This document shows positions 1 through 27,301 of a stretch of DNA of 64,000 nt, piece after piece. The stretch's first letter is position 1. Every line of letters begins with the position of its first letter. Origin of the DNA: Mobula hypostoma (Eukaryota); contig NC_086108.1 in assembly GCF_963921235.1 (NCBI RefSeq), positions 68,574,001-68,638,000 on the forward strand, read 5' to 3'. Under the pieces are notes generated by a model, which saw only the letters and a program-made list of their open reading frames with translations, was not told where the DNA came from and ran no database searches. The position numbers and the translations under genes are program-made.

Positions 1-1899
1 GTGTGTAGGGGAACACTTTGGTTCCAGTGATCATAACACCATTAGTTTCAACTTGATCATGGATAAAGATAGATCTGGTCCTTGGGTTGAGGTTCTAAAC
101 AGGAAAAAGGCCAAAATTGAAGAAATGAGAAAGGATCTAGAAAGTGTGGATTGGGACAGGTTGTTCTCTGGCAAGAATGTGATTGGTAAGTAGGAGGCCT
201 TCAAAGGAGAAATTTTGAGAGTGCAGAGTTTGTATGTTCCTGTCAGGATTAAAGGCAAAGTGAATAAGAATAAGGAACCTTGGTTCTCAAGGGATATTGG
301 AACTCTGATAAAGAAGAAGAAAGAGATGTATGACATGTATAAGAAACAGGGAGCAAATAAGGTGCTTGAGGAGTATAAAAAGTGCAAAAAAATACTTAAC
401 AAAGAAATCAGGAGGGCTAAAAGAAGACATGAGGTTGCTTTGGCAGACAAGGTGAAGGATAATCCAAAGAGCTTCTACAGGTATATTAAGAGCAAAAGGA
501 TAGTAAGGGATAAAATTGGTCCTCTTGAAGATCAGCGTGGTCGGCTATGTATGGAATCAAAAGAAATGGGGGAGATTTTAAATAGATTTTCTGCGTCTGT
601 ATTTACTAAGGAAACTGGTATGGAGTCAATGGAAATAAAGCAAACAAGTGGTGAGGTCATGGAACCTATACAAATTGAGGAGGAGGAGGTGCTTGCTATC
701 TTGAGGGAAATCAGAGTAGATAAATCCCCAGGACCTGACCGGATAATCCCTTGGACTTTGAAATTGCAGGGGCCCTGGCAGATATATTTAAAATGTCAGT
801 ATCTACGGGTGAGGTGCTGGAGGATTGGAGAGTGGCTCATGTTGTTCCGTTATTTAAAAAAGGCTCTAAAAGTAATCCGGGAAATTATAGGCCAGTAAAT
901 TTGACGGCAGTAGTAGATAAATTATTGCAAGGCGTACTGAGAGATAAGATCTACAGGTATTTGGATAGACAGGGACTTATTAGGGAGAGTCAACGTGGCT
1001 TTGTGTGTGATAGGTCATGTTTGACCAATCTATTGGAGTTTTTCGAGGAGGTTACCAGGAAAGTGGATGAAGGGAAGGCAGTGGATATTGTCTACATGGA
1101 CTTCAGTAAGGCCTTTGACAAGGTTCCGCATGGGAGGTTAGTTAGGAAAATTCATTCGCTAGGTATACATGGAGAGGTGGTAAATTGGATTAGACATTGG
1201 CTCAATGGAAGAAGCCAAAGAGTGATAGTAGAGAATTGCTTCTCCGAGTGGAGGCCTGTGACTAGTGGTATGCCACAGGGATCAGTGCTGGGTCCATTGT
1301 TATTTGTCATCTATATCAATGATCTGGATGATAATGTGGTAAATTGGATCAGCAAATTTGCTGATGATACAAAGATTAGAGGTGTAGTAGACAGTGAGGA
1401 AGGTTTTCAGAGCCTGCAGAGGGACTTGGACCAGCTGGAAAAATGGGCTGAAAAATGGCAGATGGAGTTTAATACAGACAAGTGTGAGGTATTGCACGTT
1501 GGAAGGACAAACCAAGGTAGAACATACAGGGTAAATGGTAAGGCACTGAAAAATGCAGTAGAACAGAGGTATCTGGGAATACAGATACAAAATACCCTAA
1601 AAGTGGCATCACAGGTACATAGGGTCGTAAAGAGAGTTTTTGGTACATTGGCCTTTACACAATACTCCAAATTCGGCCTCACTAATGCCTTATACAACCT
1701 CACCATAACATTCCAACTCTTATACTCAATACTTTGATTTTTGGTCACCAAATTACAGTAAGGATATTAATAAGGTTGAAAGAGTGCAGAGAAGGTTTAC
1801 AAGGATGTTGCCGGGACTTAAGAAACTGAGTTACAGAGAAAGGTTGAATAGGTTAGGACTTTATTCCCTGGAGCGTAGAAGAATGAGGGAAGATTTGAT

Positions 1900-2368
1900 C
1901 AGTCAATCGGTGGGTGCTGTCCCGAATCCAGGGTTGGTGGCTGTACACCTCCATCTTCTTTGATCTTGCGACTGCACTGAGTACAGCCTCTCCTCCAGTT
2001 TGTTCTCGCTGGCCACCTTGGCACCGCCTACCGCTGCCCCCACCGACCTCGAGCCCGAGGCCGTCTTGGCCTCCAGCCGCGGCTGCTTCTTCAAGCTCGT
2101 CCCTTCCTTAGGCAGCGGCCTTGGGCAGATCCAGGCACACGGTGCAGCGCCCAAGTCATCATCTCTTCTAACCAGGTGCATAGCATACAACTCGAGGTGA
2201 GGCTTTAGCCTCTTCCACGGAAGATGGCTTTTGGCTCACAAGGAGCTCATCCACCCTTTGTCAGGTCTTGTTTTTTTTAGCCCTGCTGGGTGTCCTCACA
2301 CCCTCCTCACCAGACTAAGTCTGGTGGGGGAACCGGCCCAAGTCGCCGACCACTCGACCACGGCCCCC
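1900..2368 (-). mobile_element. Short non-autonomous retroelement (RTE-like bipartite/SINE-like) inserted in CR1 and carrying a host exon fragment
   Basis: Flanked by an 11-bp near-perfect direct repeat: GAAGATTTGAT (1889-1899) and GAAGATCTGAT (2369-2379). Minus-strand head starts GGGGGCCGTGGTCGAGTGG and has several hairpins. The 3' part encodes SQDQRRWRCTATN..., resembling RTE ORF C-termini, and ends in a GATT/GACT-type tail. Confidence 0.6.
1974..2148 (-). pseudogene. ZFTRAF1: Captured fragment of a ZFTRAF1/CYHR1-like (cysteine/histidine-rich protein 1) coding exon, segments in permuted order
   Basis: Minus strand gives [11 protein letters not shown] (2146-2114) and ...KKQPRLEA...[11 protein letters not shown] (to ~1975). 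Together these match the conserved [21 protein letters not shown] motif I recognise from CYHR1/ZFTRAF1. The segment is GC- and CpG-rich, unlike its flanks. Confidence 0.8.
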
Positions 2369-2758
2369 GAAGATCTGATGGAGGTAAATAAAATGATGAT
2401 GGGTATTGACAGAGTGAATGCAAGCAGGCTTTTTCCACTGAGGCTAGGGAAGAGAAAAAACAGAGGACATGGGTTAAGGGTGAAGGGGGAAAAGTTTAAA
2501 GGGAACATTAGCGGGGGCTTCTTCACACAGAGAGTGGTGCGAGTGTGGCCTCATCACAACAGTAGGAGGCCATGGACTGACATGTCGGAATAGGAAGGGG
2601 AAGCAGTTTGAAAAGCTCAAACGAATAAATAGAGGAGTAGCTCAAGCAGAGCAGCCTGTGGAAAGCGACCAGTGAAGGAGTGGAGCTTTGAGGCTTTGAC
2701 TTGAGAGGCTTCGATGAGAAGAGGCGGAGGACAAGCTTGTTCCCAGTTAGTCTTTACA

Positions 2759-3644
2759 ATGCCTCCTGAGATGGTGATGTGCCTCTCATGTCAGATGTGG
2801 CAGTCTTGGGGGAACTCCCCTCTCCCGCAGAATCACATCTGCCAGAAGTGCATGCGGCTGGGCGACATGGAAGACCGTGTAAGGAATCTGGAGCAGCAGC
2901 TGGATGACGTTCCACTCATAAGGGAGAATGAGGCAGTCATAGATGAGAGCTACAGGGAGGTAGTCACACCTAGGCTGTCGGAAGCAGGTCGTTGGGTGAC
3001 AGTCAGAGGTGTGAAAGCGAAGGTGAGCAGACAGGTAGTGCAGAGCACCCCTGTAGCCATTCCCTTGAATAATAAGTTTACCGTCCTGGATACTGTTGTC
3101 GGGGACGACCAACCAGGTGTGAGCCATGGAGGCAGGGAGAAGAGGAGCGCTGTCGTCATTGGAGAGGGGAGCAGACAGGAGATTTTGTGGACGTGAGAAA
3201 GACACCCACATGGTTTGTTGCCTCCCGGGTGCTAGGGTCCAGGATGTCTCTGACCGGGTGCACGACATCCTGGTACGAGAGGGAAAGCAACCAGAAGTCG
3301 TGGTACATGTTGGGACCAATGACATAGGCAGGAAGAGGGATGAGGTCCTGAAGTGTGAGTATCAGGAACTAGGCAGAAGGCTGAAGAACAGGACCTCAAG
3401 GGTGGCGTTCTCAGGATTGCTGTCAGTGCTACGTGACAGTGATGGTAAGAATTGGAGGAGATGGCAGTTGAATGCATGGCTGAGGAGTTGGTGCAGGGGG
3501 CAGGGTTTTTGATTTTTGGATCATTGGGATCTCTTCTGGGGAAGGTGGGACCTGTACAGATTGGATGGGTTACACCTGAACTCGAGGGAGAGCAATATCC
3601 TTGCAGGTAGGTTTGCTAGCATGGTTCGGGAGGGTTTAAACTAA
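2759..3644 (+). pseudogene. CR1 ORF1 (zinc-finger/coiled-coil + SGNH esterase), frameshifted
   Basis: CLSC...ICQKC, VCCLPGARVQDV, HVGTND and DGLHLN motifs are spread over ORFs 2714..3196, 3126..3512 and the downstream frame. Confidence 0.88.
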
Positions 3645-3769
3645 TTTGCAAGGGGGATAGGACCCAGAGCGATAGAGTAGTGAAAGAAGTGCATGGAGTA
3701 AAGCCAGATCTAACATATTGAGAGGCTTTGAGGAAAGAGAAACAGAATAAACAGTGTAAAGACAGTAAG

Positions 3770-6562
3770 GTAGAAGGGCTAAAGTGTGTGTACTTCAATG
3801 CAAGAAGCATCAGGAACAAAGGTGATGAACCGAGAGCTTGGATACATCCATGAAATTATAATGTAGTGGCCATTACAGAGACTTGGCTGGCACCAGGGCA
3901 GGAATGGATTCTCAATATTCCTGGATTTCAGTGCTTTAAAAGGGATAGAGAGGGAGGGGGAGGAGGGGTGGCATTACTGGTCAGGGATACCATTACAGCT
4001 ACAGAAAGGGTGGGTAATGTATCAGGATCCTCTTTTGAGTCAGTATGGGTGGAAGTCAGGAACAGGAACGGAGCAGTTACTCTATTGGGGGTATTCTATA
4101 GGCCCCCTGGTAGCAGCAGAGATACAGAGGAGCAGATTGGGAGGCAGATTTTGGAAAGGTGCAAAAATAACAGGGCTGTTATCATGGGTGACTTTAACTT
4201 CCCTAATATTGATTGGCACCTGATTAGTTCCAAGAGTTTAGATGGGGCAGAGTTTGTTAAGTGTGCCCAGGACGGATTCCTGTCACAGTATGTTGACAGG
4301 CCGACAAGGAGGAATGCCATACTAGATCTAGTATTTGGTAACAAACCGGGTCAGGTCACAGATCTCTCAGTGGGTGAGCATCTGGGGGACAGTGACCACT
4401 GCTCCCTGGCCTTTAGCATTATCATGGAAAAGGATAGAATCAGAGAGGACAGGAAAATTTTTAATTGGGGAAGGGCAAATTATGAGGCTATAAGGCTAGA
4501 ACTTGTGGGTGTGAATTGGGATGATGTTTTTGCAGGGAAATGTACTATGGACATGTGGTTGATGTTTAGGGATCTCTTGCAGGATGTTAGGGATAAATTT
4601 GTCCCAGTGAGGAAGATAAAGAATGGTAGGGTGAAGGAACCATGGGTGAAAAGTGAGGTGGAAAATCTAGTCAGGCGGAAGAAGGCAGCATACATGAGGT
4701 TTAGGAAGCAAGGATCAGATGGGTCTATTGAGGAATATAGGGAAGCAAGAAAGGAGCTTAAGAAGGGGCTGAGAAGAGCAAGAAAGGGGCATGAGAAGGC
4801 CTTGGTGAGCAGGGTAAAGGAAAACCCCAAGGCATTCTTCAATTATGTGAAGAAGAAAAGGATGACAGGAGTGAAGGTAGGACTGATTAGAGATAAAGGT
4901 GGGAAGATGTGCCTGGAGGCTGTGGAAGTGAGCGAGGTCCTCAATGAATACTTCTCTTCGGTATTCACCAATGAGAGGGAACTTGATGATGGTGAGGACA
5001 ATATGAGTGAAGTTGATGTTCTGGAGCATGTTGATATTAAGGGAGAGGAGGTGTTGGAGTTGTTAAAATACATTAGGACGGATAAGTCCCTGGGTTCTGA
5101 CAGAATATTCCCCAGGCTGTCCACGAGGCAAGGGAGGAGATTGCTGAGCCTCTGGCTAGGATCTTTATCTCCTCATTGTCCACGGGAATGGTACTGGAGG
5201 ATTGGAGGGAGGCAAATTTTGTCTCATTTTGTCCCCTTGTTCAAAAAAGGTAGTAGGGATAGTCCGGGTAATTATAGAGCAGGAGCCTTACGTCTGTGGT
5301 GGGAAAGCTGTTGGAAAAGATTCTTAGAGATAGGATCTATGGGCATTTAGAGAAACAGGGTCTGATCAGGGACAGTCAGCATGGCTTTGTGAAGGGCACA
5401 TCGTACCTAACAAGCCTGATAGAGTTCTTTGAGGAGGTGACCAGGCATATAGATGAGGGTAGTGCAGTGGATGTGATCTACATCAATTTTAGTAAGGCAT
5501 TTGAAAAGGTTCCACACGGTAGGCTTATTCAGAAAGTCAGAAGGCATGGGATCCAGGGAAGTTTGGCCAGGTGGCTTCAGAATTGGCTTGCCTGCAGAAG
5601 GCAGAGGGTCGTGGTGGACGGAGTACATTCGGATTGGAGGGTTGTGACTAGTTGTGTCCCACAAGGATCGGTTCTGGGACCTCTATTTTTATTAATGACC
5701 TGGAAGTGCAGGTAGAAGGGTGGGTTGGCAAGTTTGCAGACGACACAAAGGTTGGTGGTGTTGTGGATTGTGTAGAGGATTGTCAAAGATTGCAGAGAGA
5801 CATTGATAGGATGCAGAAGTGGGCTGAGAAGTGGCAGATGGAGTTCAACCCGGAGAAGTGTGAGGTGGTACACATTGGAAGGACAAACTCCAAGGCAGAG
5901 TACAAAGTAAATGGCAGGATACTTGGTAGTGTGGAGGAGCAGAGGGATCTGGGGGTACATGTCCACAGATCCCTGAAAGTTGCCTCACAGGTAGATAGAG
6001 TAGTTAAGAAAACATGAGGTGTTAGCTTTCATAAGTCGAGGGATAGAGTTTAAGAGTCACGAGGTAATGATGCAGCTCTATAAAACTCTGGTTAGGCCAC
6101 ATTTTGGAGTACTGTATCCAGTTCTGGTCGCCTCACTATAGGAAGGATGTGGAAGCACTGGAAAGGGTACAGAGGAGATTTAGCAGGATGCTGCCTAGTT
6201 TAGAGAGCATGCATTATGATCAGAGATTAAGGGAGCTAGGGCTTTACTCTTTGGAGAGAAAGAGGATGAGAGGAGACATGATAGAAGTAAACAAGATATT
6301 AAGAGGAATAGGTAGTGTGGATAGCCATCGCCTCTTTCTCAGGGCACCACTGCTCAATATAAGGAGACATGGCTTTAAGGTAAGGGGTGGGAAGTTCAAG
6401 GGGGATATTAGAGGAAGGTTTTTTACTCAGAGAGTGGTTGGTGCGTGGAATGCACTGCCTGAGTCAGTGGTGGATGCAGGTACACTAGTGAAATTTAAGA
6501 GACTACTAGACAGGCATATGGAGGAATTTAAGGTGGGGAGTTATATGGGAGGCAGGGTTTGA
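3770..6562 (+). pseudogene. CR1 ORF2 (APE endonuclease + RT), multiple frameshifts/stops
   Basis: AITETW, FYRPP, MGDFNFP, SDH, QHGFVKG, PQGSVLG and KFADDTK across ORFs 3866..5350, 5296..5715, 5652..6017 and 6104..6562. Confidence 0.92.
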
Positions 6563-6900
6563 TGGTCGGCACAACATTGTGGGCCGAAGGGCCTGTACTG
6601 TGCCGTACTATTCTATGTTCTATATTCTATAAGTGAAATTAAAATGGGTAGCCACTGGGAGATCCCACTTTTTTCTGGTGAGTAGAGCAGTCTCCCAATC
6701 TGCATTGGGTCTCACCGATATACAGGAGGCCACACTGGGAGCAGTAGATAACAATGCATGATGGCCCCAAACAAACTCACAGGTGAAATACAACCTCACC
6801 TGGAAGGACTATTTGGAGCCCTGAATGGTAGTGAGAGAGTAGGTGTAGGGGCAGGTGTAGCACTTGTTCCACTTGCGAGGCTAAGTGCCAGGAGGAAGCA

Positions 6901-9486: not shown

Positions 9487-12400
9487 ACCATAAAACTATA
9501 AGATATAGGAGCAGAAATAACCTATTTGGCCCATCGAGTCTGCTCCACCATTTCATCATGGATAATCCAATTTTCTTCTCAGCCCCAATCTCCTGCTTTC
9601 TCCCTGTATCCCTTCATGCCATGACCAGTCAAGAATCTATCAACCTCTGCCTTAAATATACATAAAGACATGGCCTCCACAGCTGCTTGTGGCAAAGTTT
9701 TTACGTAGATTAATCATTCTCTGGCTAAAGAAATTCTTCCTCACCTCCATTTTAAAAGGGCACCCCTCTAGTTTGAGGCTGTGTCCTCTGGTCTTAGACT
9801 CTCCCACCATAAGAAACATCCTTTCCATATCCACTCTATCAAGGCCTTTCACCATTCGATAGGTTTCAATGAGGTCACCCCTCATTCTTCTGAATTCTAG
9901 TGAATACAGGCTCAGAGCCATCAAACACACTTTATATGACAAGACATTCAATCCAGGAATAATTTTCATGAATCTCCTTTGAATCCTCTCCAGTTTCAGC
10001 ACATCCTTTCTAAGGTAAGGAGCCCAAACATATTCACAATACTCCAAGTGAGGCCCCACCAGTGCTGTAAAAAGTTTCAATGTTACATCCTTGCTTTTAT
10101 ATACTAGTCCTCGTGAAATGAATGCTAACATCGCATTCGCCTTCCTCACCACAGACTCAACCTGCAAATTAACCTTTATGGAATCCTGCACAAGGACTCC
10201 CAAATCCCTCTGCACCCTCTGTTTTTTGTATTTTCTCTCCATTTAGAAAATAGTCAACCTTTTCATTTCTTCTACCCGAAGTGCATGACCACACTCTTTC
10301 CAACGGTGAATGCCATCTGTCATTTCTTTGCCCATTTTCCTAATCTAAGTCCCTCTGTAGCCCCTCCACTTCCTCAAAGCTACCTGCTCCTCCACCCACC
10401 CTTCATACTGTCTGCAAACAAAGCCATCAATTCCATCATCCATATCAGTGACATGTAATGCAAAAAAGAATCAGTCCCAACGCAGACCCCAGTGGGACAC
10501 ACTAGTCACCGGCAGCCAGTTAGAAAAGGCTCTCTTTATTCCCACTCTTTACCTCCTACTAATCAGCCACTGCTTTATCCATGCCAGAACCTTTCCTGTA
10601 ATACCATGGGATCATAGCTTGTTAAGCAGCCTCACGTGTGGCACCTTGTCAAAGGTCTTCTGAAAATCCAAGCACACAACAACAACCAATTCACCCTTGT
10701 CTATCCTGCTCTTCATTTCTTCAAAGAATTCCAATAGATTTGTCAGGCAAGACTTTCCCTGCAGAAACCTGGATTGGAAAGCATTCCTTACGAGAATAGG
10801 TTGAATGAACTTGGCCTTTTCTCCTTGGAATGACGGAGGATGAGAGGTGACCTGATAGGGGTATACAAGATGATGAGAGGCATCAATTGTGTGGATAGCC
10901 AGAGGCCTTTTCCCAGGGCTGAAATGGCTCACATGAGGAGGCATAGTTTTAAGGTGCTTGGAAGTAGCTACAAAGGGGATGTCAGAGGTAAGTTTTTCAC
11001 ACAGAGAGTGGTAGGTGCGTGGAATGCACCGCCAGTGATAGTGGTAGAGGCGGATACAATAGGATCTTTTAAAATTCTTTTAGATAGGTACATGGAGCTT
11101 AGAAAAATATAGGGTTATGCGGTAGGGAAATTCTAGACAGCTTCTAGAGTGGGTTACATGGTCAGCACAATGTTGTGGACCGAAGGGCCTGTAACGTGCT
11201 GTAAATTTTCTATGTTCTATGAAAACATGCTGACTATGGCCTATTTTATAATGCGCCTCCTAGTACACTGAGACATCATCCTTAACAACCAACTCCAACA
11301 TCTTCTCAACCACTGAGGTCAGACTAACTGGCCTATAGTTTCCTTTCTTTTGCCTCCCTCCCTTCTTGAAGAGCGGAGTGACATTTGCAATTTTCCAAAA
11401 ACATTATAGAATCTCATGATTCTTGAAATGTCATTAATAATGCCTTCATGATCTCTTCAGCCACCTCTTTCAGAACTCTGGGGTGTACACCATCTGGTCT
11501 AGGTGATGTATCTACCTTCAGACCTTTCAGTTTCTCAAGAACCTTCTCTCTAGCAATGGTAACTTCACACACCTCAGGCTCCCTGACACCTGGAATTTCC
11601 ACCATTCTACTAGTGTCCTCCACAGTGCAAAATACTTACTCAGTTCAACTGCCATTTCCTTGTCCCCCATTATCACCTCTCCAGCAGCATTTTCCAATGG
11701 TCCGTTATCCACTCTCGCCTCTCTTTTACACTTTATGTATCTGAAGAAACTTTTGGTATCCTCTTTAATGTTATTGGCTAACTTATTTTTATGTTCCATC
11801 TTTACCTTCTTAATGACTTTTTAGTCCCTGTGTTGGAAAGTTTCCCAAGCCTCTAAGTTCCCACTAATTTTTGTTCTATTATATGCCCTCTCTTTGGCTT
11901 TTATGTTAGGTTTGACTTCTATTGTTAGCCACGGTTGTTTCACCTTTCCTTTGAAATACTCCTTTCTCTTTGGGATGTATATATCCTGTGCCTTCCAAAT
12001 TGATTCCAGAAATTCCCGCCATTACTGCCCTGCCGTCGTGCCTGCCAGTGTTCTTTTCCAATCAATTCTGGCCAACTCCTCTCTCATGCTTCTGTAATTC
12101 CCTTTACTCCACTATAATACTGATGCACATGATTGACGCTTCTCCTTTTTACATTTCAGGGTGTAATTCTATCATATTATGATCACCTGCTCCTCAGGTT
12201 TCTTTTACCTTAAGCTCTCTAATCAATTCTGGTTCATCGCACACTACACAATCCAGAGTAGCTGATCATCTTGTGGGCTCAACAACGAGCTGCTCTAAAA
12301 AACTATCTCGTAGGCATTCTAGAAGTTCCCCTTCCTGGAATCCAGCACCAACCTGATTTTCCCAATGTACCTGCATATTGAAGTCCCCCATGACTTTTGT

Positions 12401-13830: not shown

Positions 13831-15700
13831 CAGCCTTTGCTTTCAGTTGTTGATATTGTATCGCTGGGTGAATATCAGATGCCATTAATTCTCTGCATTT
13901 ATTGCAGCATCTCATTCAATACAAGAAACAAATTCAAGTATGGTTTCAGGTGTTTTAAAGAGAAAATAAATTAATGTGAATTGATTTGTAAATCTATTTT
14001 CAGATGAAGCAAAGTGAATATTATCAAGTAACTTAAACCAGCAATAAGTGCACCTGCTTTAGTATTCACTGTATGGAATATACTGACTAATACTCTTAAA
14101 CAGATACATTACAGACATCATGAGAAAGTTGGTTTTTTTAAACATACTTAGGACATAGCAATAGATAACATTAATGCATTTCCAGGTTACTGGAACTCAC
14201 TTAATCCTACTAATGTGACTTGATCCTCCTTCTGTCCCCGTCTCAATGATCCTCCACATCTTGAAGACTGGAATTTAACAACATTGAGTACCAGAGGCAT
14301 GGGTAAAATTGGAAGTGGGGGAGGTAGGAAGAAGGTGGCAGAATTAATCAATGCAATTAAGTTAGCTTTGAAGGCAGGATCAATTGTTTACGTTAAGGAC
14401 CATCACAATGCTTCAGATATAGTACAGGACATTGCACAGTAGAAACAAGACAGGGAAGCAATAAGCTACAGAAACCATAAAGGAAATGTTCAATTTCTAT
14501 CGTGTACAGCAGTAGGTAAAGGAAAATATGTTAAAGAAGTCTTGATATGCGGAAAAAAGAAAATTCTTCATCAGTATGATTCTCAAGGACAAAGGAACCA
14601 GTACGGAAATAACCAGAGGCAAGTGGAGCATATTTCCAAAGAAAAGCATTAATAAAGGTGAACTGGTAAATCTCACTTTTAGAATTAGAAAAGTAATTAC
14701 ATGGTGGAGGGAATTGAAAAGATATCTGGAAGTGTAATGAAAACTGAACTATACAACTAAAACATGTAACCTGCGCCATCAGAGAAGACAAGGCCAATGG
14801 GTGCATGTTCGCTTCCAACGCAGTTTATCATAACCTTCCTTCTGCCCTGGAACTCCTTTTCCACACACATTGAAAGTACTTAACCAGTGATTCAAGAAAA
14901 TACCTTATTGCAGCTTAGGGATGGGATGAGAATTTAAGCTGTAGAAGCAGGAGTACATTATTCATCTTGCTTGCTTTGCTATTCATAAAGATCAGTGCCA
15001 CCTTCTGCACTGACCCCAAATCCCTTGAATTCCTGAATATATAAAATTTCATTGACCTCAGTCTTGAGCTTCCACAGCCCTCCTCCGTAGAGAATTCCAA
15101 ACATTGAGAACCTGCTGGGCGGATATTTCTTCTCATCTGTCCTGAACAGATAACTGTTATTTTGAGAGTCTAATCCCTGGTTCTAGATACCTCAGCCATG
15201 GGAAACATTAACTCCATATCCAACCTGTCAAGCAATAAATGGTGGGCTCACCATTAATCCACAAATGAACACGAAGTTGTAAAACCTGCCCTGCCAATAC
15301 AGATAGCTACATCAATCAATGATATTTGTTGCAGCTTTTATCCGAAAATCACAAAGTAGAAAATAAAATTACACAGTCTGAACAGCACAGTACACACAAT
15401 TTTTAAAGGATTGAAGGAAGCTGATGACACTACTTTTGTTAGACGAATCACAAGTGGTGATGCGCCAGCTTATCAGAGTGTGATACAGCTCCTGGTTGAG
15501 TGGTGCACGGTATTTAAATATTCAATGATATTCAGTGATCAGTCTTGGCAATTTGAACACATCCTCACTGCTCCCTCTGCTGGCTGGTGCCCTGACTTTT
15601 TTTTAAAAATGGGTACATTAATAACAGAGCTTCCAGCTGAACTAACATCCTAAATCTATCGATTCCCACAATTACTCCAAAGGGAGAAATCACTACTTTC

Positions 15701-17843
15701 TTTCTTTCTTTTTAAATCTTTTTATTAAATAAGTATACAAAAAGGTAAGCCATATAGGCACTAATACACTGTTAGAATATAATAAAATTACAGAAGATAT
15801 TAATACAAAAAAAAACTACAAACAATGTAATTTAAACATAACGTACCAAGGTAACATAATAGTATACTAATTTTTATATATATATCAATAGAGAAAGGAA
15901 AAAAAAACCCCAAAAAAAACCCACCGTGCAACTAACTAAAAGCAAAGCAAAGCAATGGGCTAACTTGAAACCAAACAGAGTTAAAAAAACTTAAAATCAC
16001 GTCCTCAATCCCGACCTCCATTAAAAACAGTAAAAAAAACAACAAGGGTATATATTACATTAAATGAAAATATTGAATAAAAGATCTCCAGGTCTGTTCA
16101 AATTTAAATGAGGAGTCATAAAGATTGCTTCTAATTTTCTCCAAATTCAAGCATAATATCATCTGAGAAAACCAAAAAAAGGTAGATGGAGCATTGAGCT
16201 CTTTCCAATGTTGTAAGATACATCTTTTCGCCATTAAAGTAAGAAATACAATCATTCTACGGGCTGAAGGGGAGAGATTACTAGAAATTTTAGGTAGTCC
16301 AAAGATAGCAGTAATAGGGTGAGGAGAGATATCTATATTCAATACCTTGGAGATAATATTAAAAATGTCTCTCCAAAAAGTTTCCAGAGTAGGGCAAGAC
16401 CAAAACATATGAGTTAAAGAGGCTAGCTGCCCCGGACATCTATCACAAAAAGGATTAATATGAGAATAAAAGCGCGCTAATTTATCTTTGGACATATGTG
16501 CTCTATGAACAACTTTAAATTGAATCAGGGAATGTTTAGCACAGATAGAGGAAGTATTGACTAATTGTAAAATCTGCCCCCAGTCATCGACAGAAATGAT
16601 AAACCTTAATTCCTGTTCCTAATCTACCCTAATCTTATCAAATGGAGCTTTCCTAAGTTTCATAATAATATTATAAATCATAGCCGATGCACCTTTCTGA
16701 CATGGATTAAGGTTAATTATAGTATCTAAAATGTATGTAGGAGGAAGCATTGGAAAGGAAGAAAGTATAGTACTTAGGAAATTTCTAACTTGTAGATATC
16801 TAAAAAAATGTATTCTTGATAAGTTATATTTATTAGATAATTGTTCAAAAGACATAAGGGAACCATCTAAAAATAAATCCAAAAACCATGAAATACCCGT
16901 AGTCTTCCAAATTTGAAAAGCATGATCCGTAAAAGAGGGAGGAAAAAATATGTTACCTAAAATAGGAATCGCTAACCCAAATTGATTAAGATAAAAAAAC
17001 TTTCTGAATTGAAACCAAATACGTAAGGTGTATTTAACTATCGGGTTAGACACCTGTTTAAGGCGTTTCAAATCAAAAGGAAGAGAGGAACCCAAAATAG
17101 AGCCAAGTGTATAACCCTGAACAGATTGTAATTCCAATGCTACCCATTTAGAAATGGATAGTATATCCTGGTCAAGTAACCAGAATTTCATATGTCGAAT
17201 ACTAATTGCCCAATAATAAAATCTAAAATTAGGTAATGCTAAGCCTCCATCTCTCTTAGCTTTCTGTAAATGTATTTTACCCAGTCCCGGGTTTTTATTT
17301 TGCCAAATAAATGAAGAAATTTTAGAGTCGACTTTGTCAAAAAAAGATTTTGGAACAAAATTGGTAATGCTTGAAATATATATAAAAATTTTGGCAAAAA
17401 AAACATCTTAACTGCATTAATACGACCAATCAAAGTTAAATATAAAGGAAACCATTTAGATGAAAGTTGAATAATATGGTCTATTAATGGTAAAAAGTTA
17501 ATCTTAAATAAATCTTTGTATTTACAAGTAATTTTAATCCCAAGATATGAAAAATAATTATTAATCAATTTAAATGGAAAGTTATGATATAAGGGAAGTT
17601 GTTTATTAATCGGGAAAGGTTCACTCTTACTAAGATTTAATTTATAACCAGAAAAGAGACTAAATTGTGCTAATAACTCTAAAACAGCCGGGATGGATTT
17701 TTGGGGGTTAGAAATATATAAAAGTAAGTCATCAGCATAGAGTGATATTTTATGGGACTTTAAGCCCCGAGTTATCCCAGTAATATTTGGAGATTCTCGA
17801 ATGGCAATTGCAAGAGGTTCTAATGCAATATCAAATAATAAAG
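15701..17843 (-). mobile_element. L1-clade LINE, 5'-truncated (RT core to 3'UTR)
   Basis: 15-bp TSD GAAATCACTACTTTC (15686-15700 / 17844-17858). LYADD at ~17728-17742, FSYLGI, and C-terminal CDRC...HMFWSC zinc knuckle. AATAAAAAG followed by a (GAAA)n tail. Confidence 0.93.
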
Positions 17844-18259
17844 GAAATCACTACTTTCAATAATTTGAAATTGAAACAATATTGTGCAGGGTCATAAAGG
17901 AGTTTCTACAACTGATTTAAGCATCTTTTAAAATTTATTAATGTGACTTGGGTATTAGGAGCAAGCATAAGCTCCATGTATGAATTGTAATTTACCAGGC
18001 CATACTAGAATAATGTCCAGGAGTACCTGTCCAGAGAAGAACTGCTTTATTGTCTGATGAGCTGTACGTGGGCCTAGAGTCATCAGCGAATGTCCCATTT
18101 CTGATCTTCAGATGAAAGGAAGGGTACCGATGAAGCAGCTAAAGATGGCTGGCCAATGAAACTGACCTCGAGAACTCCTGCTCCGTTGAAGGAGGAGGAA
18201 TGAGGTAGGAAAAGAAAGGAGGCGGGAAGGCATCAGAAGGAAGGAGTATGGGGAAGAAG

Positions 18260-18417
18260 GCTGGCATGTGATGTAGCTGGTAGAGCTGCTTCCTATAATC
18301 TCCACAGGCCCAGACTCAATCAGGACCTCTGGTGTTGTTTGTGTGGAGATTACACACTCTCCCTGTAACTGCATGGATTTCCTCTGGTTACTCCAATTTC
18401 CCACCAGATCCAAAAGC
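18260..18417 (+). mobile_element. Degenerate tRNA-derived V-SINE/HE1-like SINE (5' part)
   Basis: A-box-like TAGCTGGTAGAGC and V-domain-like TGTGTGGAG..T.CAC..TCTCCCTGT.ACTGC.TGG.TTTCCTC.GG.T.CTCC..TTTCC. Confidence 0.6.
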
Positions 18418-18427
18418 AGATTGTTTC

Positions 18428-19200
18428 AACCATAAGACATGGGAGCAGAATTAGTCCATTCAGCCCATTAAGTCTGTTCGGCCATTTGATCATGGCTGAT
18501 TTATTTCCAGCTCAACTCCAGTCTCCTGGCTTCACCAATGACCTTTGACACGCTTACTAATCAAGACCTATCAACCTCTGCTCTAAAGGTACCCAATGAC
18601 TTGGCCTCCACAACCATCTATGGAAATAAATTCCACAGATTCACTATCTAAAGAAATTCCAACTCATCTCTGTTCTAAACCTCATCCAGTTCTAGGTGTT
18701 CCACAGCTCAGAGTTCTATTCTGGTGCCATCTGTAAGGAATTTGTACGTTTTCCCTGTGACCATGCCGGTTTCTTCCGGGTGCTCCAATTGCTTCCCACA
18801 ATCCAAGGAGATACCAATTAGCAGGTTAATTGTTCATTGTAAATTGTCCTGCAATTAGACTAGTGTTAAATGGGTGGGTTGCTGGGCGGTGTGACTTGTT
18901 GGGCTGAAAATGCCTGTTCTGAACTGCTTTTATAAAGAAGTAAAAATAAATAAAGGGCTATCCTGCTGTTCTGAGGCTGTGCCCTCTGGTTGTGGAATTT
19001 GTACTATTGAAAACACTCTCTCCACATCCACTCTGTCCTAAGCCTTTCAAGATAAGTTTCAATGAGATCCCCCCTCATTATTCTAAACTCCAGAGAGGAC
19101 AGGATAAGAGGTATCAACACTTCTCATATGTTAACCCTTTGATTCCTGGGAGCACTCTTGTGAACCTCCGCTGGACCCTCTCCAATGCCAACCCTTCCTT
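18428..19200 (-). mobile_element. CR1 3' end fragment, interrupted by a SINE
   Basis: ACCATAAGACATGGGAGCAGAATTAG tail, as at 9487 and 38806; continues after 18953. Confidence 0.75.
18690..18953 (+). mobile_element. V-SINE/HE1-like SINE
   Basis: TGTAAGGAATTTGTACGTTTTCCCTGTGACCATG..GGTTTCTTCCGGGTGCTCC core, GGTTAATTG.TCATTGTAAATTGTCC, CR1-like tail and (AAAT)n end. Confidence 0.72.
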
Positions 19201-19249
19201 TCACTCTCATGCAGAGGTAAGTGGCAGAATATTATTTAATTATTTACAA

Positions 19250-19435
19250 TTGATCAATTAACCTACTACCAGTATATGTTTGCATTGTGTGAGGAAACTG
19301 GAGCACCCAGAGAAAGCCCACGCATTCAACGTGGAGGACGTACAAACTCCTTACAGAGGACTCCGGGATTGAACTCCAAACTCCAACGCTCCAAGCTGTA
19401 ATAGTGTCACACTACCGCAATGCTACTGTGACACT
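19250..19435 (-). mobile_element. V-SINE/HE1-like SINE
   Basis: Reverse complement has GGAGTTCAATCCC (B-box-like) and the TGTAAGGAGTTTGTACGT core. Confidence 0.7.
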
Positions 19436-20073
19436 CCGAGGAAAATTGATGGAACTATAGAGAGAGTAAGTTTCACAGAAAACTAGTTGGGGAATAGGAT
19501 TGTCTACTGAACACGCATTGAAATGATAGGCCAAATAGACTCCTTCTACATCATTAATACTAAAATACAAATAAACTATATGGAGGATAGACAGAGGAGG
19601 AGAAAGAAAATCAGGAGGAGAAAATATGAATGTTTTTTTCACAGAAATAATTGGAGAACTATTTGAAGTGTAGATGGACACAACACAGGGTACTGACGAT
19701 GAGTTAAATAATCTTCAGCTCTACAAGTTGGTATTCTAGGATAAATGAAATAAGAAAAATCAATTAAAGAATGAAAGAGCACAAACAGGTCAGGCAGAAG
19801 TCAAGATGAAGGGTGAATAGGAAATCAAGAAGAAAATTAAATAAATAGGTGAGACTCTGGTTAGAGAACAGGAAAGAACAAAACCGTTACAATGCATGAT
19901 TCAGTAAGTTGGCAGTAATAGTCTGAATCAGGATTTTTAAAGTAAATAACAAATTAGCTTGTTAAAATACTTCCAGTTTAGTGACAAGGTTTTCTGTTCT
20001 CTTCTTTTTGATCGATGAATGGTTGCCCCAGTAAGGGAGGGCTGATCTTCAGAAAGCCTTGCTGGTATATTAC

Positions 20074-20815
20074 AGAATCAGAATCAGATTTAGTATCACC
20101 AGCATATGTCATGAAATTTGTTAACTTTACAGCAGCAGTACAATGAAATACATGATAAATAAATATACAGAAGAAAACTGAGTTACATTAAGTATATATG
20201 TCTATTAAATAGTTAATTTAAAAAAGTAGTGCCAAAAAACAGAAATAATAAAAGTAGTGAGGCAGTGTTCACGGGTTCAATGTCCATTTAGGAATCAGAT
20301 GGCAGAGGGGAAGAAGCTGTTCCTGAATCTCTGAGTGTGTGCCTTCAGGCTTCTGTACCTCCTCCCCGCAGATAACAGTGAGAAGAGGGTGGTGGGGATC
20401 CTTAAAGATGGATGCTTCCTTCTAAGGTACCACTCCTTGAAGATGTCTTGGGTGCTACAGAGGCTAGTACCCATGATGGAGCTGACTAATTTTACAAGTT
20501 TCTGCAACTTATTTCGATCCTATGCAGTAGTCCCCCATACCAGACGATGATGCAACCAGTCAGAATGCTCTCCATGGTACATTTGTAGAAGTTTTCTAAT
20601 GTTTTAGTTGACAAACCAAATCTCCTCAAACTCCTAATGAAATATTGCCACTGTCCTGTTTTCTTTATAGCTTATTACTATGTTGTGTCCAGACTAAGTC
20701 CTCAGAGATATTGACACCCAGGAGCTTGAAATTGCTCGTTCTCGCTTCTTCTGCTCCCTCTATGAAGATTGGTTTGTGCTCCCTTGTCTTACCCTTCCTG
20801 AAGTCCACAATCAGC
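20074..20815 (-). mobile_element. Rex1/Babar-type LINE 3' fragment
   Basis: (ATTCTG)n tail; ORF 20295..20507 SAGRRYRSLKAHTQRFRNSFFPSAI; IVDFRK...FKLLGVNISEDLVW. Confidence 0.82.
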
Positions 20816-22160
20816 AGGGGACGGGGATTGGAATTAAAGTGGTTGGCCACCAAGAAATCCTGCTTCTTGCAGATGGGGTGAAGGTGCTTGACAAAGAGGT
20901 CCCCCAATCCTTGCCAAATCTCACCAATGTAGAGGTGTCCACAATGGGAGCACCAGATACAGTAGATAACCCCAACAGACTCAGAGGTGAAATGTTGCCT
21001 CACCTAGAATGATTGGTTAGGGCCATAAGTGGAGGCAAATGGGCAGGTATAGCATTTCTTCTGATTACAGGGATAAGTACTAGGAGGAAGATTAGTGGGG
21101 AGGGATGAATGGACAAGGGAATCACCGAGAGCTATCCCTGGGGAAAGTGGAGAGTGGCGGGGGGGGGGAGGTAAAGGTGATCGGATCCTGGTGAAGATGC
21201 CAGAAGTTGCGGAAAAAGATGCACTGGATACAGAGGCTCATGGGCGGTACCCAAGGACAAGAGGAACTCTATTCCCGTCAAAATGGCGGGACGACAGGGT
21301 GAGGGCGATTATCTGAGAATTGGAGGAGATGCAGCGAGGGGCAGCCTCAGTGGTGGAGGAAAGGAACTCCCATTCTTTGAAGAACGAGGACATCACTAAT
21401 GTTCTAGAAAGGAAAGCCTCATACTGGGAGCAGATGTAGCGGAGACGGAGAATCTGAGAAATGGAATAGCACTTTTACAAGTGACAGGGTGGAAAGAAGT
21501 ATAGTCAGAGAGTCAGTAGTTTTATAAAAGATATCAGTAGACAGTTTGTCTCTAAAGATGGAAACATCAAGATCAAGAAAGAGGAGGGAGATGTCAGAAA
21601 TGGACCAAGTGAGCTTAAGGGTAGTGTGTAAGTTGGAGGCAAAATTGATGAACTTGACAAGCTCAGCATGGATGCATGAAGCAACACCAATGCTGTTGCC
21701 AATGTAGCACAGAAAGAGGTTAGGAGTGTTACCAAGCGAAGGCTTAGAATATGGACTGTTCTACATGGTCAACAAAAAGTCAGGCATAGCTGCGGCCTCT
21801 TGCTACCCCTTGGGTTTAGAGAAAATGGGAGAAATCAACATCATCTGATCTGTTTACAAGAAGACCTCTATAAATATTGCAATAAAAATTTTAAAGTGAA
21901 AAAAAAAGAGAAATTGTTCAGTGTGAGGACCAGTTCCGCCAGATAGAGGAGAGAGGTGGTAGAGTGGAATTGTCTGGATCTGTGATTGAAAAAGAAAGTG
22001 GAGAGTTTTAAGGCCTTCTTGATAGGGGATAGACGTGTATAGGGACTGGACACCCATAGTGAAAATGAGCTGATCAAGGCCAGGGAACTGAAAGCTGTTT
22101 AAGAGATTGAAAGCACGTGAAGCGTCATGGATGTTGGTGGGAAGGGACTGAACCAAGGAG
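20816..22160 (-). mobile_element. Penelope-like element fragment (RT + GIY-YIG), decayed
   Basis: VGVIYCIWCSHCGHLYIGE; FTMGVQSLYTSIP. Confidence 0.85.
21836..21907 (+). mobile_element. 72-bp polyadenylated retroposed tail (probably an L1 3' end) inside Penelope
   Basis: AATAAA plus A-tail, flanked by GAGAAAT (21829-21835 / 21908-21914). Confidence 0.55.
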
Positions 22161-22184
22161 GATAAAATGGTATTTTAACCCCAG

Positions 22185-22432
22185 AATGATCCCTAGCAAT
22201 CACCAAACCAGTTTTACATCCAATTAGCCAGTCCATATTGGATCCAATGTGCCTTAACCTTCTGGAGCAGCCTACCATACAGGACTTTGTCAAATGCCTT
22301 ACTGAAGTCTACGTAGATAATGTCTACTACCCTCCTTTCATCATTCTTCTTACTTACCTTCTCAACAAACTCATATCAAGTTACTGAGGTAGGATTTTGC
22401 CCACACAAAGTCATGCTGACTATCCCTGATCA
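22185..22432 (-). mobile_element. Old CR1 RT fragment
   Basis: Reverse complement encodes VYVDFSKAFDKV and a QHDFV-like segment. Confidence 0.7.
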
Positions 22433-25340
22433 GCCTCAACCATTCCTTTCTGCCTTGTTGTTGCATCATAAGGGTGAGAAATTATTCTGATGCAGCTGTA
22501 AAGATGAGAGCTGATATTTCTTATATCTCGCAAGTTGCATTGCACCAGATGTTCCTGTAAATGATTGCTCAACCCAAACAAACCATGGTCAGAGTCATAT
22601 AGATTTTCTAGGTCCGTTAATAGAAAAATAATAGTGACCATTATGGATGTACATTCCAAGCAGTCTGTTCCTACAGATACATATACAGCACAAGCTACTA
22701 TGTAGGAACCGGTTGAGGGATAAAAATTGGCCAGAGTAAAGAAAAATCTACTTTTAATAGTGTTGTGAGAGCTCTTATGTCAAATAAGAGGTTAAAAGAA
22801 AGACTACACTTCTGACACTGCAGCACTACATCAGCATAGACATTATAGTTCACAGATTTGACTGCAATGTGAATTCATGCCTTCTGACTCAGATACAAGT
22901 GCTCCAAAATCTGTTTCTTTCTCATGGTGTCTGCTGCTCTAAAATGCAGCCTATAGATTCAGAAACTATTGGATCTAATTGGATGCTAAACAGCATTATA
23001 ACAAATCTCAGATCATCCTCATTCCACAGATATCTAACTAGTACACTTCCAGAATCAGATAGCTAGGGGGATTGAGAACCACTGAGTTCACATTGTAATG
23101 CCATTTCTGTCACCATGGTTGCCATCTGACCGATTAAGTATTTCCATCATTTTCTATTTCATCTCTAGGCTTTCATCATGAGATTTAGATTTATATATGA
23201 GAGTATATTCATGAGATTGAGATAGAAACTTCAATCAAACTTTGAAAACCATATAAAAACAATTCTAAATCTAAAATATTTTGTATTATTAATCTGCAGG
23301 AATTATAATCCACATACATAAAATTGGTTTTTCAAGGCCATGCTGCTAAGTAATAATTATGGCTCAGGGTGCCATTACACTTCATGTAACAAAGCACACT
23401 CTGAGACAGGACCATAATATGACAAGCTCACAGATTTCTCAATATCGCATTAGGGAAAACTGCAAAACAACTCACCCTGTAGGGGAGCAAAGTGACAGTG
23501 ACAAGAATTTCTGAATTTTTAAAATGCAAATAGGTACTTCAGAGGTGGTTGTCAGTTTAAATGGTGAAATGATCGTAAATGTTTTCAATCCATCCCTGAC
23601 AATTACATCAATTTTAGTTTTTTTGAATAAATACATTTTAAATTGAGATTTTAATATACTTACTGGAACAAAAATATGCAAGAATTAAAAACAAAAATTC
23701 AAATGAAAATATCCAAGCAGAACCCCTTTGAGCTGGCTATATTGAAAAATATCAAGGAAATTTTCCTTGCAAAATAGAAATATACCCATTTGAGAATAAA
23801 AATGTGAATTATTTGCAAACATGGCCTTTTTATTGTTTAACTTCCTTGCATGTGTCAGTTTCTACCAATCACACACCTAAAAACTAAAGAAGAGTAAGTA
23901 TTCATAAGGTTATCTGAGGCTTTGATTTTATCTTTCTTGATGTTTTCTTTCATTAAGAAATCAAAAAGTACATAATTATATTGAATCAAATGCACATCTT
24001 CCACTCAACATGGAAGTCAATAGTTATGATAACTGTACCTCAATCTGGTATTTTCATTCATATTTAGCTCTACGACAAACACAATTTATCAATATCATTA
24101 ACAATTATTATAAAGCAGTGTTTGCTCAAGTTTACTCTCCCGAAAATATTTAACTCCTAGATATCACACATAGCACAATAATTGTATTTACCTTTTGAGA
24201 ATCAACTTACTTTACAATACTATTTACCTGGAAATTGGTTACCCTCATATATTTGATAACGAATGGATCTGCAAAATAACAGGCATTTTTAGGAATTTCA
24301 CATATATTCTTCAACTAAAACAACACATTTCCTCACATTCAAAATGTATAATACTAAAAATGAATAAAGCAATTAATTTGATTTTAAACCATAAATGAAT
24401 TCTGCAGGTGAATGAAGAATTTTGACTGGTAGAGATAAACAACAGAGACATTCCCTAGCACAGTCTTTTTCATTAGAATCTAGTTTGCAAATGTTCTTGG
24501 ATGTCAAGGCGCTCCAAAAATGAAACAAATAAATTAACATTCTGTATAGTCCACTTCAAATACACCATTTATTTTCCTGACCATATGAACAGCTACTCTT
24601 TGTTATTCCTTCCGCTGTTCAAATCAACTTTCTCCCTTCATCATTGTGCATGATCTCGGATGTTGTATTTCTCTCTCAGTATGTAACTCTGCTGGTCATG
24701 AAAATCAACAAGAGTAGACTAAATCATATCTTTTCATACACGCTACAAAGCTCTTAGTGTAAGATCAAAACAAACACAAGTCAAAGAAGTAAGCTACCAG
24801 AAGGCATACTAAGTAAATTTGGAGCAAGTATGATTAATGTGGACCTTTGGTATTTGTGCCTATGAATATGTTTTTACTTAATTATGTTACTTAATTCCAA
24901 GTTAATCTACCTTATCCCTGAAATTATCAATATTTCTATCACAGCAGTTGTTCCCTTAAAATTGCTTTAAACAGCTCATTTATTACAGAATATTTAACAA
25001 GTCAAAAGCTGCATTAATAAGAGTAAATTGCAATCATTGTCTAAGTGAATTACCTGGTTCAGCTGTATTTAAATCTGATGTACCAAATAATTCAAAGCAA
25101 CAAATGCCCTGTTTAGGACAAGTGCAATTCAATCCATATGTGAACAGACACACAATCAATTGTTAGAATTGCTTTTGTCAGGCAAAACAGTAAAATTTTG
25201 TGTATCTTCTGAAAGAAAAGCAAGAAGATGTCTGCCTTGAACATAGAAGAGGCCCAAGCATCACAATGGCCATGCCAATCAAGATGTGGATTTAGACTGC
25301 ACACCTGCCTGCACATGATCCATATCTCTGCATAAAAATA

Positions 25341-25665
25341 AAGATTAGCTTTATTTGTCACATGCACATTGAAACATCGAGGCACATGGTGAAATGAGTC
25401 ATTTGTGTCAAATCAAGTCAGCAAGAATTCTGCTGGACAGCTTTCAAGTGTTGTCACGCTACCCAGCACCATCATAGCATGCTCACAATTCACTAACCCT
25501 AACTCATACATCTTTGGTATGTGGGAGGAAACCAGAGCACCTGGAGGAAACCCACATGATTATGGAGAGAACGTAGCAACTCCTTACAGACAGTGGTAGG
25601 AATCAGAGTTTGACTGGTGGTTTCTTCCACTGTGAAGTGATTGCACCAATCGCTATACTATCTTG
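25341..25665 (-). mobile_element. V-SINE-like SINE with Rex1-type tail
   Basis: Plus strand reads GGGAGGAAACCAGAGCACCTGGAGGAAACCCAC...AACTCCTTACAGACAG (reverse complement of the SINE core); tail TGTGACAAATAAAGCTAATCTT on minus. Confidence 0.65.
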
Positions 25666-25679
25666 TCTCCATGCTGATG

Positions 25680-26000
25680 TGCCTGTCCAAATGCCTTTTA
25701 AACATTGCCATCATATCTGCTTCCACTACTTCCCTGGTAGCACTCTCTGGGCATTTATCACTCTGTGAAAAACTTACCAAGTAAATCTCTTCCAAACTTT
25801 CTCCTCTCTCTCCTTAAAGTTATACTCTCCAGCATTTGACATTTCCATCCTGAGCAAAAGACTTTGGCTATCTACCCATGCCTATGTTTCTCATCATTTT
25901 ATGTAATTTGATAAGGTCATCACTCAGCCTAAAGAAACAATCTAAGTTGTCCAGCCCCCCCCCACCCCTTTTAACTAATACTCTGAAATCTTGGCCAGCT
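25680..26000 (-). mobile_element. Old CR1 3' fragment
   Basis: Similar to the CR1 C-terminus at 40880-41200. Confidence 0.6.
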
Positions 26001-26880
26001 GTCTACAAACATCACCAAAACTCAAGATTACTGGGTCACTTGGCTCATTGTCATCTGTATGCAATAAGATTCATCCTATTTTAACATGTAAATCTGAAAG
26101 TTTTCATGCATCAACAATTCTAAAACAATTGAAGTTAAATTATTAATACTGGTAAAATTAAACATAGCTTCTTATTAACCTATGAAATAAACTTGTGATT
26201 TTTCAATTACCATAATCAATGGATCATTCACTCCTTCGCAGAATTTTATACAGATGGTTGTTTACTGGGGATATTAAACATATTCAAGTGGTAAATTGTA
26301 TATGTGACCTATAGTAAAATTTATTGATAAATAACAACCATGGGATATAACAAAATATTTCTTTCTCTCCAGCATGACTCATCCTGGGTGTCCTGTAATC
26401 ATCACCAATTTCCCAGTCCAATCATTCTTTCTGACATTTAATTATTACATTACATTCCAGTCCTTTCCTTCTCTTCCATTTGAGCCTCTTTCCATTTTCC
26501 AATTTTTGATCAAAGTTCACCGACTTTATTTTTCTTTCCATAGACAGTCCAAGTTGGCCACAACACCCCAAGCTCCATCACGGCGAGCACTGGTGCCTCC
26601 CAGGGTTGTGCACTTAGTCCACTGTCAGATTCATTTCAAACCGCATCATCATGTTTGCTGTTGATACTTGGTGGTCAGCATACAAGAGGAGGTAGAGAGG
26701 CTTGTCAAATGGTGTGAAAACAACAACCTGAGTCTCAACATAGGCTAAACCAAAGATATGACCGTGGACAACTCTCCCTTACATGTCAATGGCTGTGCAG
26801 AGAGTGAAGAGCACAAAGCTCCTTGGTGTGCACCAATTGGACAACCTAACCTGGATCCACAACATCTCCTCACTAGTCAA

Positions 26881-27123
26881 TGTTGTGTATTCAATCTTTG
26901 AGTAATATTGTAAATATATTATTTGATTACACTTTCTTTATTTGTTTTCATAAATCATTATGTGTTATATGTAAGAAGTAGTGAATGACACACTCGATTA
27001 CACCGCCACATCACATGCAAATAACTCACTAAGAAAAAGTAAAAAGAAAAACTAAGTAGACAGAACGTATCCCAGCTCCCATGTTTTTCTTTCAATTAGT
27101 TTCTGGAGTTATAAGACATAACA
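26881..27123 (+). mobile_element. Solo LTR of the Gypsy family
   Basis: TG...CA ends; perfect 5-bp TSD GTCAA (26876-26880 / 27124-27128); similar to the LTRs at 7308-7542, 35904-36140 and 48033-48264. Confidence 0.92.
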
Positions 27124-27301
27124 GTCAAGGAGGCACAGCAGCGTCTATGCTTTTTGAGGAGATTGAGACATGTAAAGTTCACCAGCCCCATTCTAACGAC
27201 TTTCTACAGGAGCACCATCAATAGTGACCTGTCTGGCTGCATCATTGTGTGCAAGGCGTCGGACCACAAGACCCTGCAGAGGATAGTAAAAACTGCCGAG
27301 A

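Follow-up and report, generated by a model that had tools for sequence, protein, structure and literature searches.

Bipartite non-autonomous LINEs of the RTE type, among them Bov-A, RTE-N2_Lch, WALLSI3 and RTESINE2, are short, lack an ORF and are flanked by target site duplications (TSDs). They consist of the 5' and 3' parts of a LINE which are joined directly (Kojima, 2018, PMC5786205; this and the other sources except Dong et al., 2016 are cited from excerpts). Within the excerpt used here, ORF-less bipartite derivatives are reported only for RTE, Ingi, Vingi and R2 elements. Host exons can be amplified by non-autonomous non-LTR retroposons as well, as in SVA_F1, which carries MAST2 exon 1, and in the chimpanzee STK40-SVA_D with 94 members. 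In both, a colinear first exon was gained at the 5' end by splicing (Damert, 2018, PMC6139936). Pack-TIR and Pack-MULE elements place transposon ends around GC-rich host fragments and are sometimes multicopy, but they are DNA transposons with terminal inverted repeats and reach few copies in animals (Tan, 2021, PMC8277862). Two further systems involve non-colinear gene fragments. The circRNA-derived pseudogenes of mouse include 33 circRFWD2 copies flanked by MMERVK10C LTR sequence; in these copies, which differ in length and accompany LTR elements, a true back-splice connects annotated exon 6 with exon 2 (Dong et al., 2016, PMC4897178). Germline insertions of eccDNA turn the order AB into BA, are single and lie mostly on the chromosome of origin (bioRxiv 10.64898/2026.09.03.749254, whose excerpt does not describe amplification within a retroposon).

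Here we describe a multicopy, TSD-making element that consists of a head, a cargo derived from the host gene ZFTRAF1 (CYHR1) and a LINE-like tail, and in which the cargo travels with the element. We are nearly certain of its anatomy, its multicopy status and the rotation of its cargo, taken together. Like the bipartite RTE elements it is short, ORF-less and TSD-flanked. The lengths of its ends (220 and 71 nt) are similar to those of RTE-N2_Lch (214 and 70 bp), and in both cases the 3' block finishes in a microsatellite (PMC5786205, excerpt). In contrast to these elements, 178 nt of ZFTRAF1 lie between the two ends, of which the tail alone resembles RTE, by motif. It works like a bipartite RTE derivative but, having extra cargo and unmatched ends, is not one in the strict sense. 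With SVA_F1 and STK40-SVA_D it shares the amplification of a host exon, yet the captured piece is internal and rotated, and with the Pack elements it shares the GC-rich fragment between element ends, which are of the LINE type here. Non-colinear order, absence of poly(A), multicopy status and association with a retroelement are common to the element and the circRFWD2 copies. Unlike these, the element contains a loop within one exon, of exactly one turn, inside a non-LTR element, and is far more abundant. The AB to BA order is shared with the eccDNA insertions. A published description of a family with ZFTRAF1 cargo was not found in the literature searched, although the family may already be deposited in Repbase or Dfam, and two cargo peptides did not occur in the paper text searched.

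Results

The element is inserted into a CR1 LINE

We analyzed a window of 64,000 nucleotides. The element occupies 469 bp on the minus strand (1900-2368) and is antiparallel to its CR1 host (Table 1). The best repeat around the insert is the 11-mer 1889-1899 / 2369-2379 with 10 of 11 positions identical, and an equally good match to the left copy was found at 8 of 20000 random positions of the window. Deleting the insert together with one TSD copy restored an open C-terminus of CR1 ORF2, which aligned over the insertion site with two CR1 copies of the window (41233-41055 and 10788-10913). CR1 copies lacking the insert were also present in all four sequencing runs analyzed, in which 6, 5, 8 and 1 contigs jump from 1895 to 2376 and thereby skip 480 bases, that is 469 plus 11. 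These data bear out the preliminary description of a 469-bp insert with a near-perfect duplication of 11 bp, which has one mismatch. It had also placed the split of the CR1 at the residues GDLI; the CR1 is indeed split, but it reads EDLI or EDLM at this point. The length of the TSD falls within the 7-20 bp expected of a non-autonomous non-LTR retroposon, the 3' end of the element is a simple repeat, and its GACT/GAT units extend 2 nt into the left TSD copy.

Table 1. Positions of the element, its parts and its host CR1 within the window.
Feature	Position	Strand	Basis or remark
Host CR1 LINE, left part (ORF2, RT region)	1..1899	+	sequence comparison
TSD, left copy, 11 bp; adjoins the 3' end of the element	1889..1899	.	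alignment of other copies extends through 1898/1899
3' tail (71 nt) with the terminal codons of a LINE-type ORF (QD[Q/R]RRWR...PTD*) and GATT/GACT units	1900..1970	-	RTE-like by motif only
Block A of the cargo, the upstream portion of the ZFTRAF1 exon piece (EG[T/P]S..KK.PRLE...)	1971..2108	-	follows block B in the element, precedes it in the gene
Block B of the cargo, the downstream portion, to ~4 nt short of the splice donor of the exon	2109..2148	-	precedes block A in the element, follows it in the gene
5' head, 220 nt; presumed LINE 5' UTR	2149..2368	-	other copies begin at 2367-2370
TSD, right copy	2369..2379	.	11-mer with one mismatch to the left copy
Host CR1 LINE, right part (end of ORF2)	2369..2540	+	CR1 copies of the window

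The window is dominated by remnants of various types of LINE. Long CR1-like copies with ORF1- and ORF2-like frames are located at ~2550-6630 (plus strand) and ~40750-45350 (minus strand) and are ~70% alike. Within the ORF2 of the host CR1, ~80 bp (1658-1737) are inverted relative to other CR1 copies while both flanks run forward, which resembles a small in-place inversion. An imperfect inverted repeat of 204 bp (53670-53873, 82% alike) is related to a short repeat of which the window contains many copies.

Head and tail

An RT or endonuclease ORF is absent from the 469 bp. A frame of 92 codons without a stop (2181-1903, minus strand) opens at an ATG of the head, includes block A and its basic KK.PR patch and continues in frame into the end of the LINE ORF; it is probably incidental.

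The ~220-nt head had been called hairpin-rich. Folding of the whole head gave z = -2.0 with 5 of 200 shuffles as good. The signal stems from two hairpins in the first 66 nt (z about -3.2, using a cruder doublet shuffle), and the remaining parts were unremarkable with z of -0.6 and -1.0. The hairpins are thus present at the 5' end, but the overall excess is modest. No tRNA was found, and a tRNA-type Pol III SINE head is not supported. An Rfam search of the element gave no match near threshold and no ribozyme at E up to 5 or 10. Likewise, twister L4, HDV L3 and hammerhead motifs were not detected on the element strand of this one decayed copy. We rejected a SINE with a Pol III head on the grounds of the missing tRNA, Rfam match and B box. 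For this copy a ribozyme-headed RTE (twister or HDV-like) was rejected as well, as a conserved catalytic core was not recognised at its 5' end; since the copy is decayed, this holds less firmly for the family. An 11-mer at 2360-2350 (minus strand), at +9 of the element, fits the Pol III A-box pattern and is not accompanied by a B box. It is possibly a tRNA-like relic at a LINE 5' end or may be due to chance.

The tail peptide SQDQRRWR and the GATT/GACT end were found as previously described. The majority of the family reads QDRRRWR...TD*, with the stop codon lying within the start of the microsatellite. The three-part layout also stood, with altered boundaries: the cargo, initially drawn as 175 nt (2148-1974) next to a tail of ~74 nt, comprises 178 nt (2148-1971) and leaves 71 nt for the tail (1970-1900). 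The tail peptide matched no Pfam family. Two hagfish RTE ORFs, inspected by eye in an excerpt of the supplement of PMC7245038, carry DRAKWR and NRAKWR near their ends, the stop following a few codons later. These ends conform to [DN]R-x-x-W-R and are followed by a short 3' end which finishes in a microsatellite. On the basis of this likeness, which is one of motif and not of sequence homology, the partner LINE is probably of the RTE type. An autonomous LINE carrying either end of the element was not found in sequence, motif and published supplementary-sequence searches. Against the latter sequences, including AviRTE and with long runs shortened there, short motifs of head and tail produced only scattered 7-9-mers. 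Sequence-pattern searches with head, tail and cargo gave no further matches, and 43 viral contigs sharing a 16-mer with the head were discarded as chance matches (best 21 nt). RTE identity and a single donor for both ends are therefore putative. The proposal that head and tail derive from one RTE was accordingly not confirmed: neither an autonomous partner nor a homologous RTE end emerged, and only the tail resembles RTE ORF ends, at the level of motifs.

The cargo is a piece of a ZFTRAF1 exon

The cargo is wholly exonic, lies in sense orientation and has a GC content of 65-68%. When the 46 residues of block A were searched alone, the parent was not reached (0 of 56 candidates in one search). 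The lone match of one search, an unrelated 696-aa repeat protein, was rejected, and two Ig-domain matches were regarded as chance. The parent was reached by a degenerate pattern for the CTVCLDLPK block, which returned 23 metagenome loci including one cluster named as ZFTRAF1/CYHR1 homolog, and then by a two-row profile built from block A and the fish-like locus L048. This profile retrieved 186 proteins. Among the 120 listed, sawfish ZFTRAF1 was the top match and only four proteins covered 98% of block A, all of them ZFTRAF1 of cartilaginous fish. The E-values of the profile owe much to the L048 row, and scores without the conserved core, BLASTP and shuffles served as independent checks. Without its core, block A scored 99, 84, 80 and 77 against the four cartilaginous-fish proteins and at most 47 against the other 115 of 119 proteins; none of 5000 shuffles reached 99. 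BLASTP against sawfish ZFTRAF1 gave 29/48 (E 1e-6). With letters of the family majority in place of those of this copy, 40 of 50 residues of block A were identical to sawfish, up from 34, and PKAS was restored in block B. The assignment of the cargo to CYHR1/ZFTRAF1 therefore holds, with sawfish as the closest match by profile and core-free scores, and the genome that carries the element is likely that of a batoid. Most likely the cargo is a passenger.

An intron after the residues YQ of ZFTRAF1/CYHR1 has the same position in 17 of the 23 animal loci (L044-L066), both fish-like and invertebrate-like. In these 17 a GT donor directly follows YQ, and 6 loci continue into C[TG]NGHLMC. Two loci (L054 and L058) read through the intron site though their upstream frames look genomic.

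The cargo is circularly permuted

Within the cargo, block B precedes block A, which is the opposite of the gene order. KLE.RL...L is found directly before CC[TA]VCLDLP in 22 of the 23 pattern loci, and all seven named proteins printed have block A before block B. Element nucleotides 221-251 match positions 835-865 of L048 and nucleotides 368-398 match positions 804-834 (28/31 each). Since these stretches adjoin in L048, the end of the cargo meets its start at gene position 834|835, and the two ends abut there with no gap and no overlap. The end pair 221/398 had the top joined score among 224 pairs (94; next 89), and the unrotated cargo scored 47. Judged by its outer ends in L048, the cargo was classed as rotated from AB to BA under limits of 95% for the minimum coverage and 5% for the maximum overlap; a DNA loop and an RNA loop give the same outcome. 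The cut at the outer ends lies within a codon of the gene (T|GC), and splice sites are present at neither of the two outer junctions. Closure and junction were judged against a teleost-like gene and shark and ray proteins as stand-ins for the host gene. The preliminary description had not noted this permutation, which is the feature that bears most on the capture route.

The inner junction between blocks B and A was placed at ~2109/2108, with an uncertainty of up to 10 nt. In L048 the coding stretch of block B is followed by GT. Past PKAS, the element fits the codon pattern of block B at 5 of 6 fixed positions and up to the TA of a Tyr codon, four bases before the donor. It then reads AG-GAA-GGG, corresponding to E-E-G of block A, the codons of which were deduced from proteins. 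Three readings fit this arrangement: a blunt join TA|AG; a donor joined to an AG acceptor with subsequent loss of 2 nt; or an earlier join at a shared AGGCC, ~10 nt before, at the cost of three mismatches in eight bases. The last is possible because the spacing of R-P-x-x-x-E-G equals that of the gene. Both the blunt and the donor-AG reading put the end of the loop at the splice donor and therefore favour an RNA template, and this splice-site argument would fall if the junction lay at AGGCC ~10 nt earlier. A clean back-splice at the inner junction would need the loss of 2 nt and one substitution; the donor lies within ~4 nt, and the deduced AG is adjacent. No majority indel or substitution was present at 2107-2115 among 40 of 163 and 12 of 28 rows listed, so the oddities of the junction are probably the founder's own.

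The element forms a family

Contigs from 4 of 24 listed runs were aligned to positions 1820-2450, CR1 flanks included, at 80% likeness: X2 and X18 (organism A), X5 (organism B) and X9 (organism C). None of the runs listed is recorded as RNA; X18 was taken as RNA by guess only and is not counted as evidence of transcription. Organisms D-G, with shares of 0.04-0.13, do not enter the evidence. The counts of bridging and inexact pieces below refer to 32 of 40,143 aligned pieces, and the joints considered are 15 of 310, crowded by the CR1 flanks. All 29 bins of the aligned region were covered in each of the four runs. At least six contigs cross the join of tail and cargo and have 31 nt or more on either side of it (X18 record 2; X2 records 9 and 10; X5 record 17; X9 records 25 and 26), and at least three bridge the join of cargo and head with differences (X18 record 4; X9 records 29 and 31). 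Eighteen inexact pieces covering the cargo were tallied, and they differ from this copy by 9.8-17.4%. Pieces of other copies stop at 1898-1899 and 2367-2370 and continue for up to 1.4 kb into sequence alien to this locus. From the coordinates of these records, we read the foreign flanks as probable other insertion sites. These data bear out the expectation that the element is multicopy together with its cargo, as diverged contigs of three organisms carry both joins with differing flanks. The co-occurrence of head, cargo and tail elsewhere was seen pairwise, as tail with cargo and as cargo with head.

Single variants were shared by up to 81 contigs. Among 40 of 163 rows, at least 27 majority differences are common to X2, X5 and X9, and this copy is ~6% away from the family majority. 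When majority letters were applied in cargo and tail, 12 of 20 restored a CpG. This copy has decayed after its insertion, largely at CpGs. The locus represents a full-length but ordinary decayed copy and is unusual at the level of the family.

The ratio of summed depth to the depth of the exact contig ranged from 97 to 3931 by bin, which is a ratio of depths and not a copy number; copies are many, probably hundreds or more. In X2 the depth was 20,000-28,000 in the cargo beside the tail and 14,000-16,000 in the tail. That the cargo reaches the depth of the tail here suggests that most tail-bearing copies carry it. At 2150-2193 the X2 depth falls to ~700-800 as compared to 16,000-29,000 in the head. 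This stretch (2194-2149) shows clustered indels relative to other copies, with insertions listed at 2155, 2160/2161 and 2192. The dip may reflect divergence of this copy, subfamilies or head-bearing copies with another middle.

Discussion

How did a rotated piece of exon enter a retroposon? The exact closure of the cargo calls for a topologically closed template. The reading which we favour, and to which we give about an even chance, is a single capture by a LINE reverse transcriptase that copied one turn around a looped ZFTRAF1 RNA, with spread since then by an RTE-type LINE acting in trans. Target-primed reverse transcription would begin at the 3' end of the LINE RNA, of which 71 nt would be copied, and the enzyme would then switch to ZFTRAF1 exon RNA at the ...YSVL|CCTV... 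point. It would copy block A to the 5' limit of the template, cross to the 3' limit, which is the splice donor or a point no more than ~4 nt from it, and copy block B. Either a circle formed by back-splicing might have served as template or a linear piece of the exon, with the enzyme jumping from one end to the other. R2-type enzymes jump end to end between templates. A stall at its own starting hybrid would confine the enzyme to exactly one turn, and a switch to the LINE 5' UTR would complete the product with loss of the ORF. The product would keep its cis signals, the 5' end for transcription and the 3' end for recognition, and amplify as a non-autonomous element. The copy at 1900-2368 would have landed later in a CR1. 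Three features point to mobilisation in trans by target-primed reverse transcription: the TSD, a tail of the LINE type and the 2 nt that tail repeat and target have in common.

We favour an RNA loop because a single reaction then explains the sense orientation, the exon-only content, the end near the splice donor and the missing ORF. Chimeras that arise by template switching are sense-oriented (PMC13174262, excerpt), and both circRNA and open RNAs with close ends have been named as sources of non-colinear retrocopies (Dong et al., 2016, PMC4897178). A back-splice within one exon would need a cryptic acceptor, and the upstream sequence, judged from the protein, appears purine- and GC-rich. It is conceivable, although improbable, that the family goes back to a tiny circular RNA, back-spliced within a single ZFTRAF1 exon, of which a non-LTR reverse transcriptase copied exactly one round and which was then amplified like a SINE, and that its CpG-rich copies, hundreds in number, now act on the parent gene through small RNAs or methylation or that the cargo boosts transcription of the element. 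Splice capture of the SVA_F1 type was rejected, given an internal, rotated cargo whose outer junctions are not splice sites.

A loop of DNA would leave the same order of blocks. A 178-bp DNA microcircle from the GC-rich ZFTRAF1 exon, cut once, ligated into a break in a LINE or an existing bipartite element and amplified afterwards, is a serious contender to which we assign about one chance in three. A single cut yields exact closure without any further assumption, so that this route is at least as simple as the RNA loop; the GC content of the cargo and the possible AGGCC microhomology at the inner junction also fit. The cargo is close to one nucleosome repeat in size, as would suit microDNA. 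According to the excerpt of a review, microDNAs arise preferentially from exons, 5' UTRs and CpG islands, but measure ~200-400 bp as compared to the 178 nt of the cargo (PMC8040306). AB to BA order serves as a mark of eccDNA-derived germline insertions; however, 80 of 82 such insertions lie on the source chromosome, and none is described inside a mobile element in the excerpt (bioRxiv 10.64898/2026.09.03.749254). For a microcircle, the sense orientation and the end within ~4 nt of a splice donor would moreover be coincidence.

The order B-A might also arise without any loop, if the enzyme switched template twice independently on a linear ZFTRAF1 mRNA or if the junction of a tandem duplication of the exon piece was captured. 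Repeated template switching and chimeras are documented for LINEs and RTE-derived SINEs, but only luck would then make the outer ends abut without gap or overlap, and we consider this origin quite improbable. A one-off capture at 1900-2368 or an assembly artefact would agree with the lack of a second copy within the 64-kb window and of a contig spanning the whole element among the pieces listed. It is contradicted by the diverged contigs of three organisms that carry both joins with differing flanks, which refute a one-off capture, and by a contig (X2 record 13; 2117-2251, 135 nt, depth 7.45) that matches this copy with 0 differences over the join of head and cargo. We regard this explanation as extremely improbable.

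The origin of the middle bodies of SINEs has been described as largely unknown (PMC5786205, excerpt). Here, the body of a retroposon traces to a named host exon, and the exact rotation records the route of capture. As many copies exist in several species, the three junctions of the founder should be readable at single-base resolution by comparison with parent gene and partner LINE. Such a reading could separate reverse transcription of an RNA loop from reintegration of a DNA microcircle, and there are few clean germline examples of either. For these fish, the many loci that closely resemble a piece of a ZFTRAF1 exon can also lead to errors in read mapping and in the calling of circRNA or eccDNA junctions.
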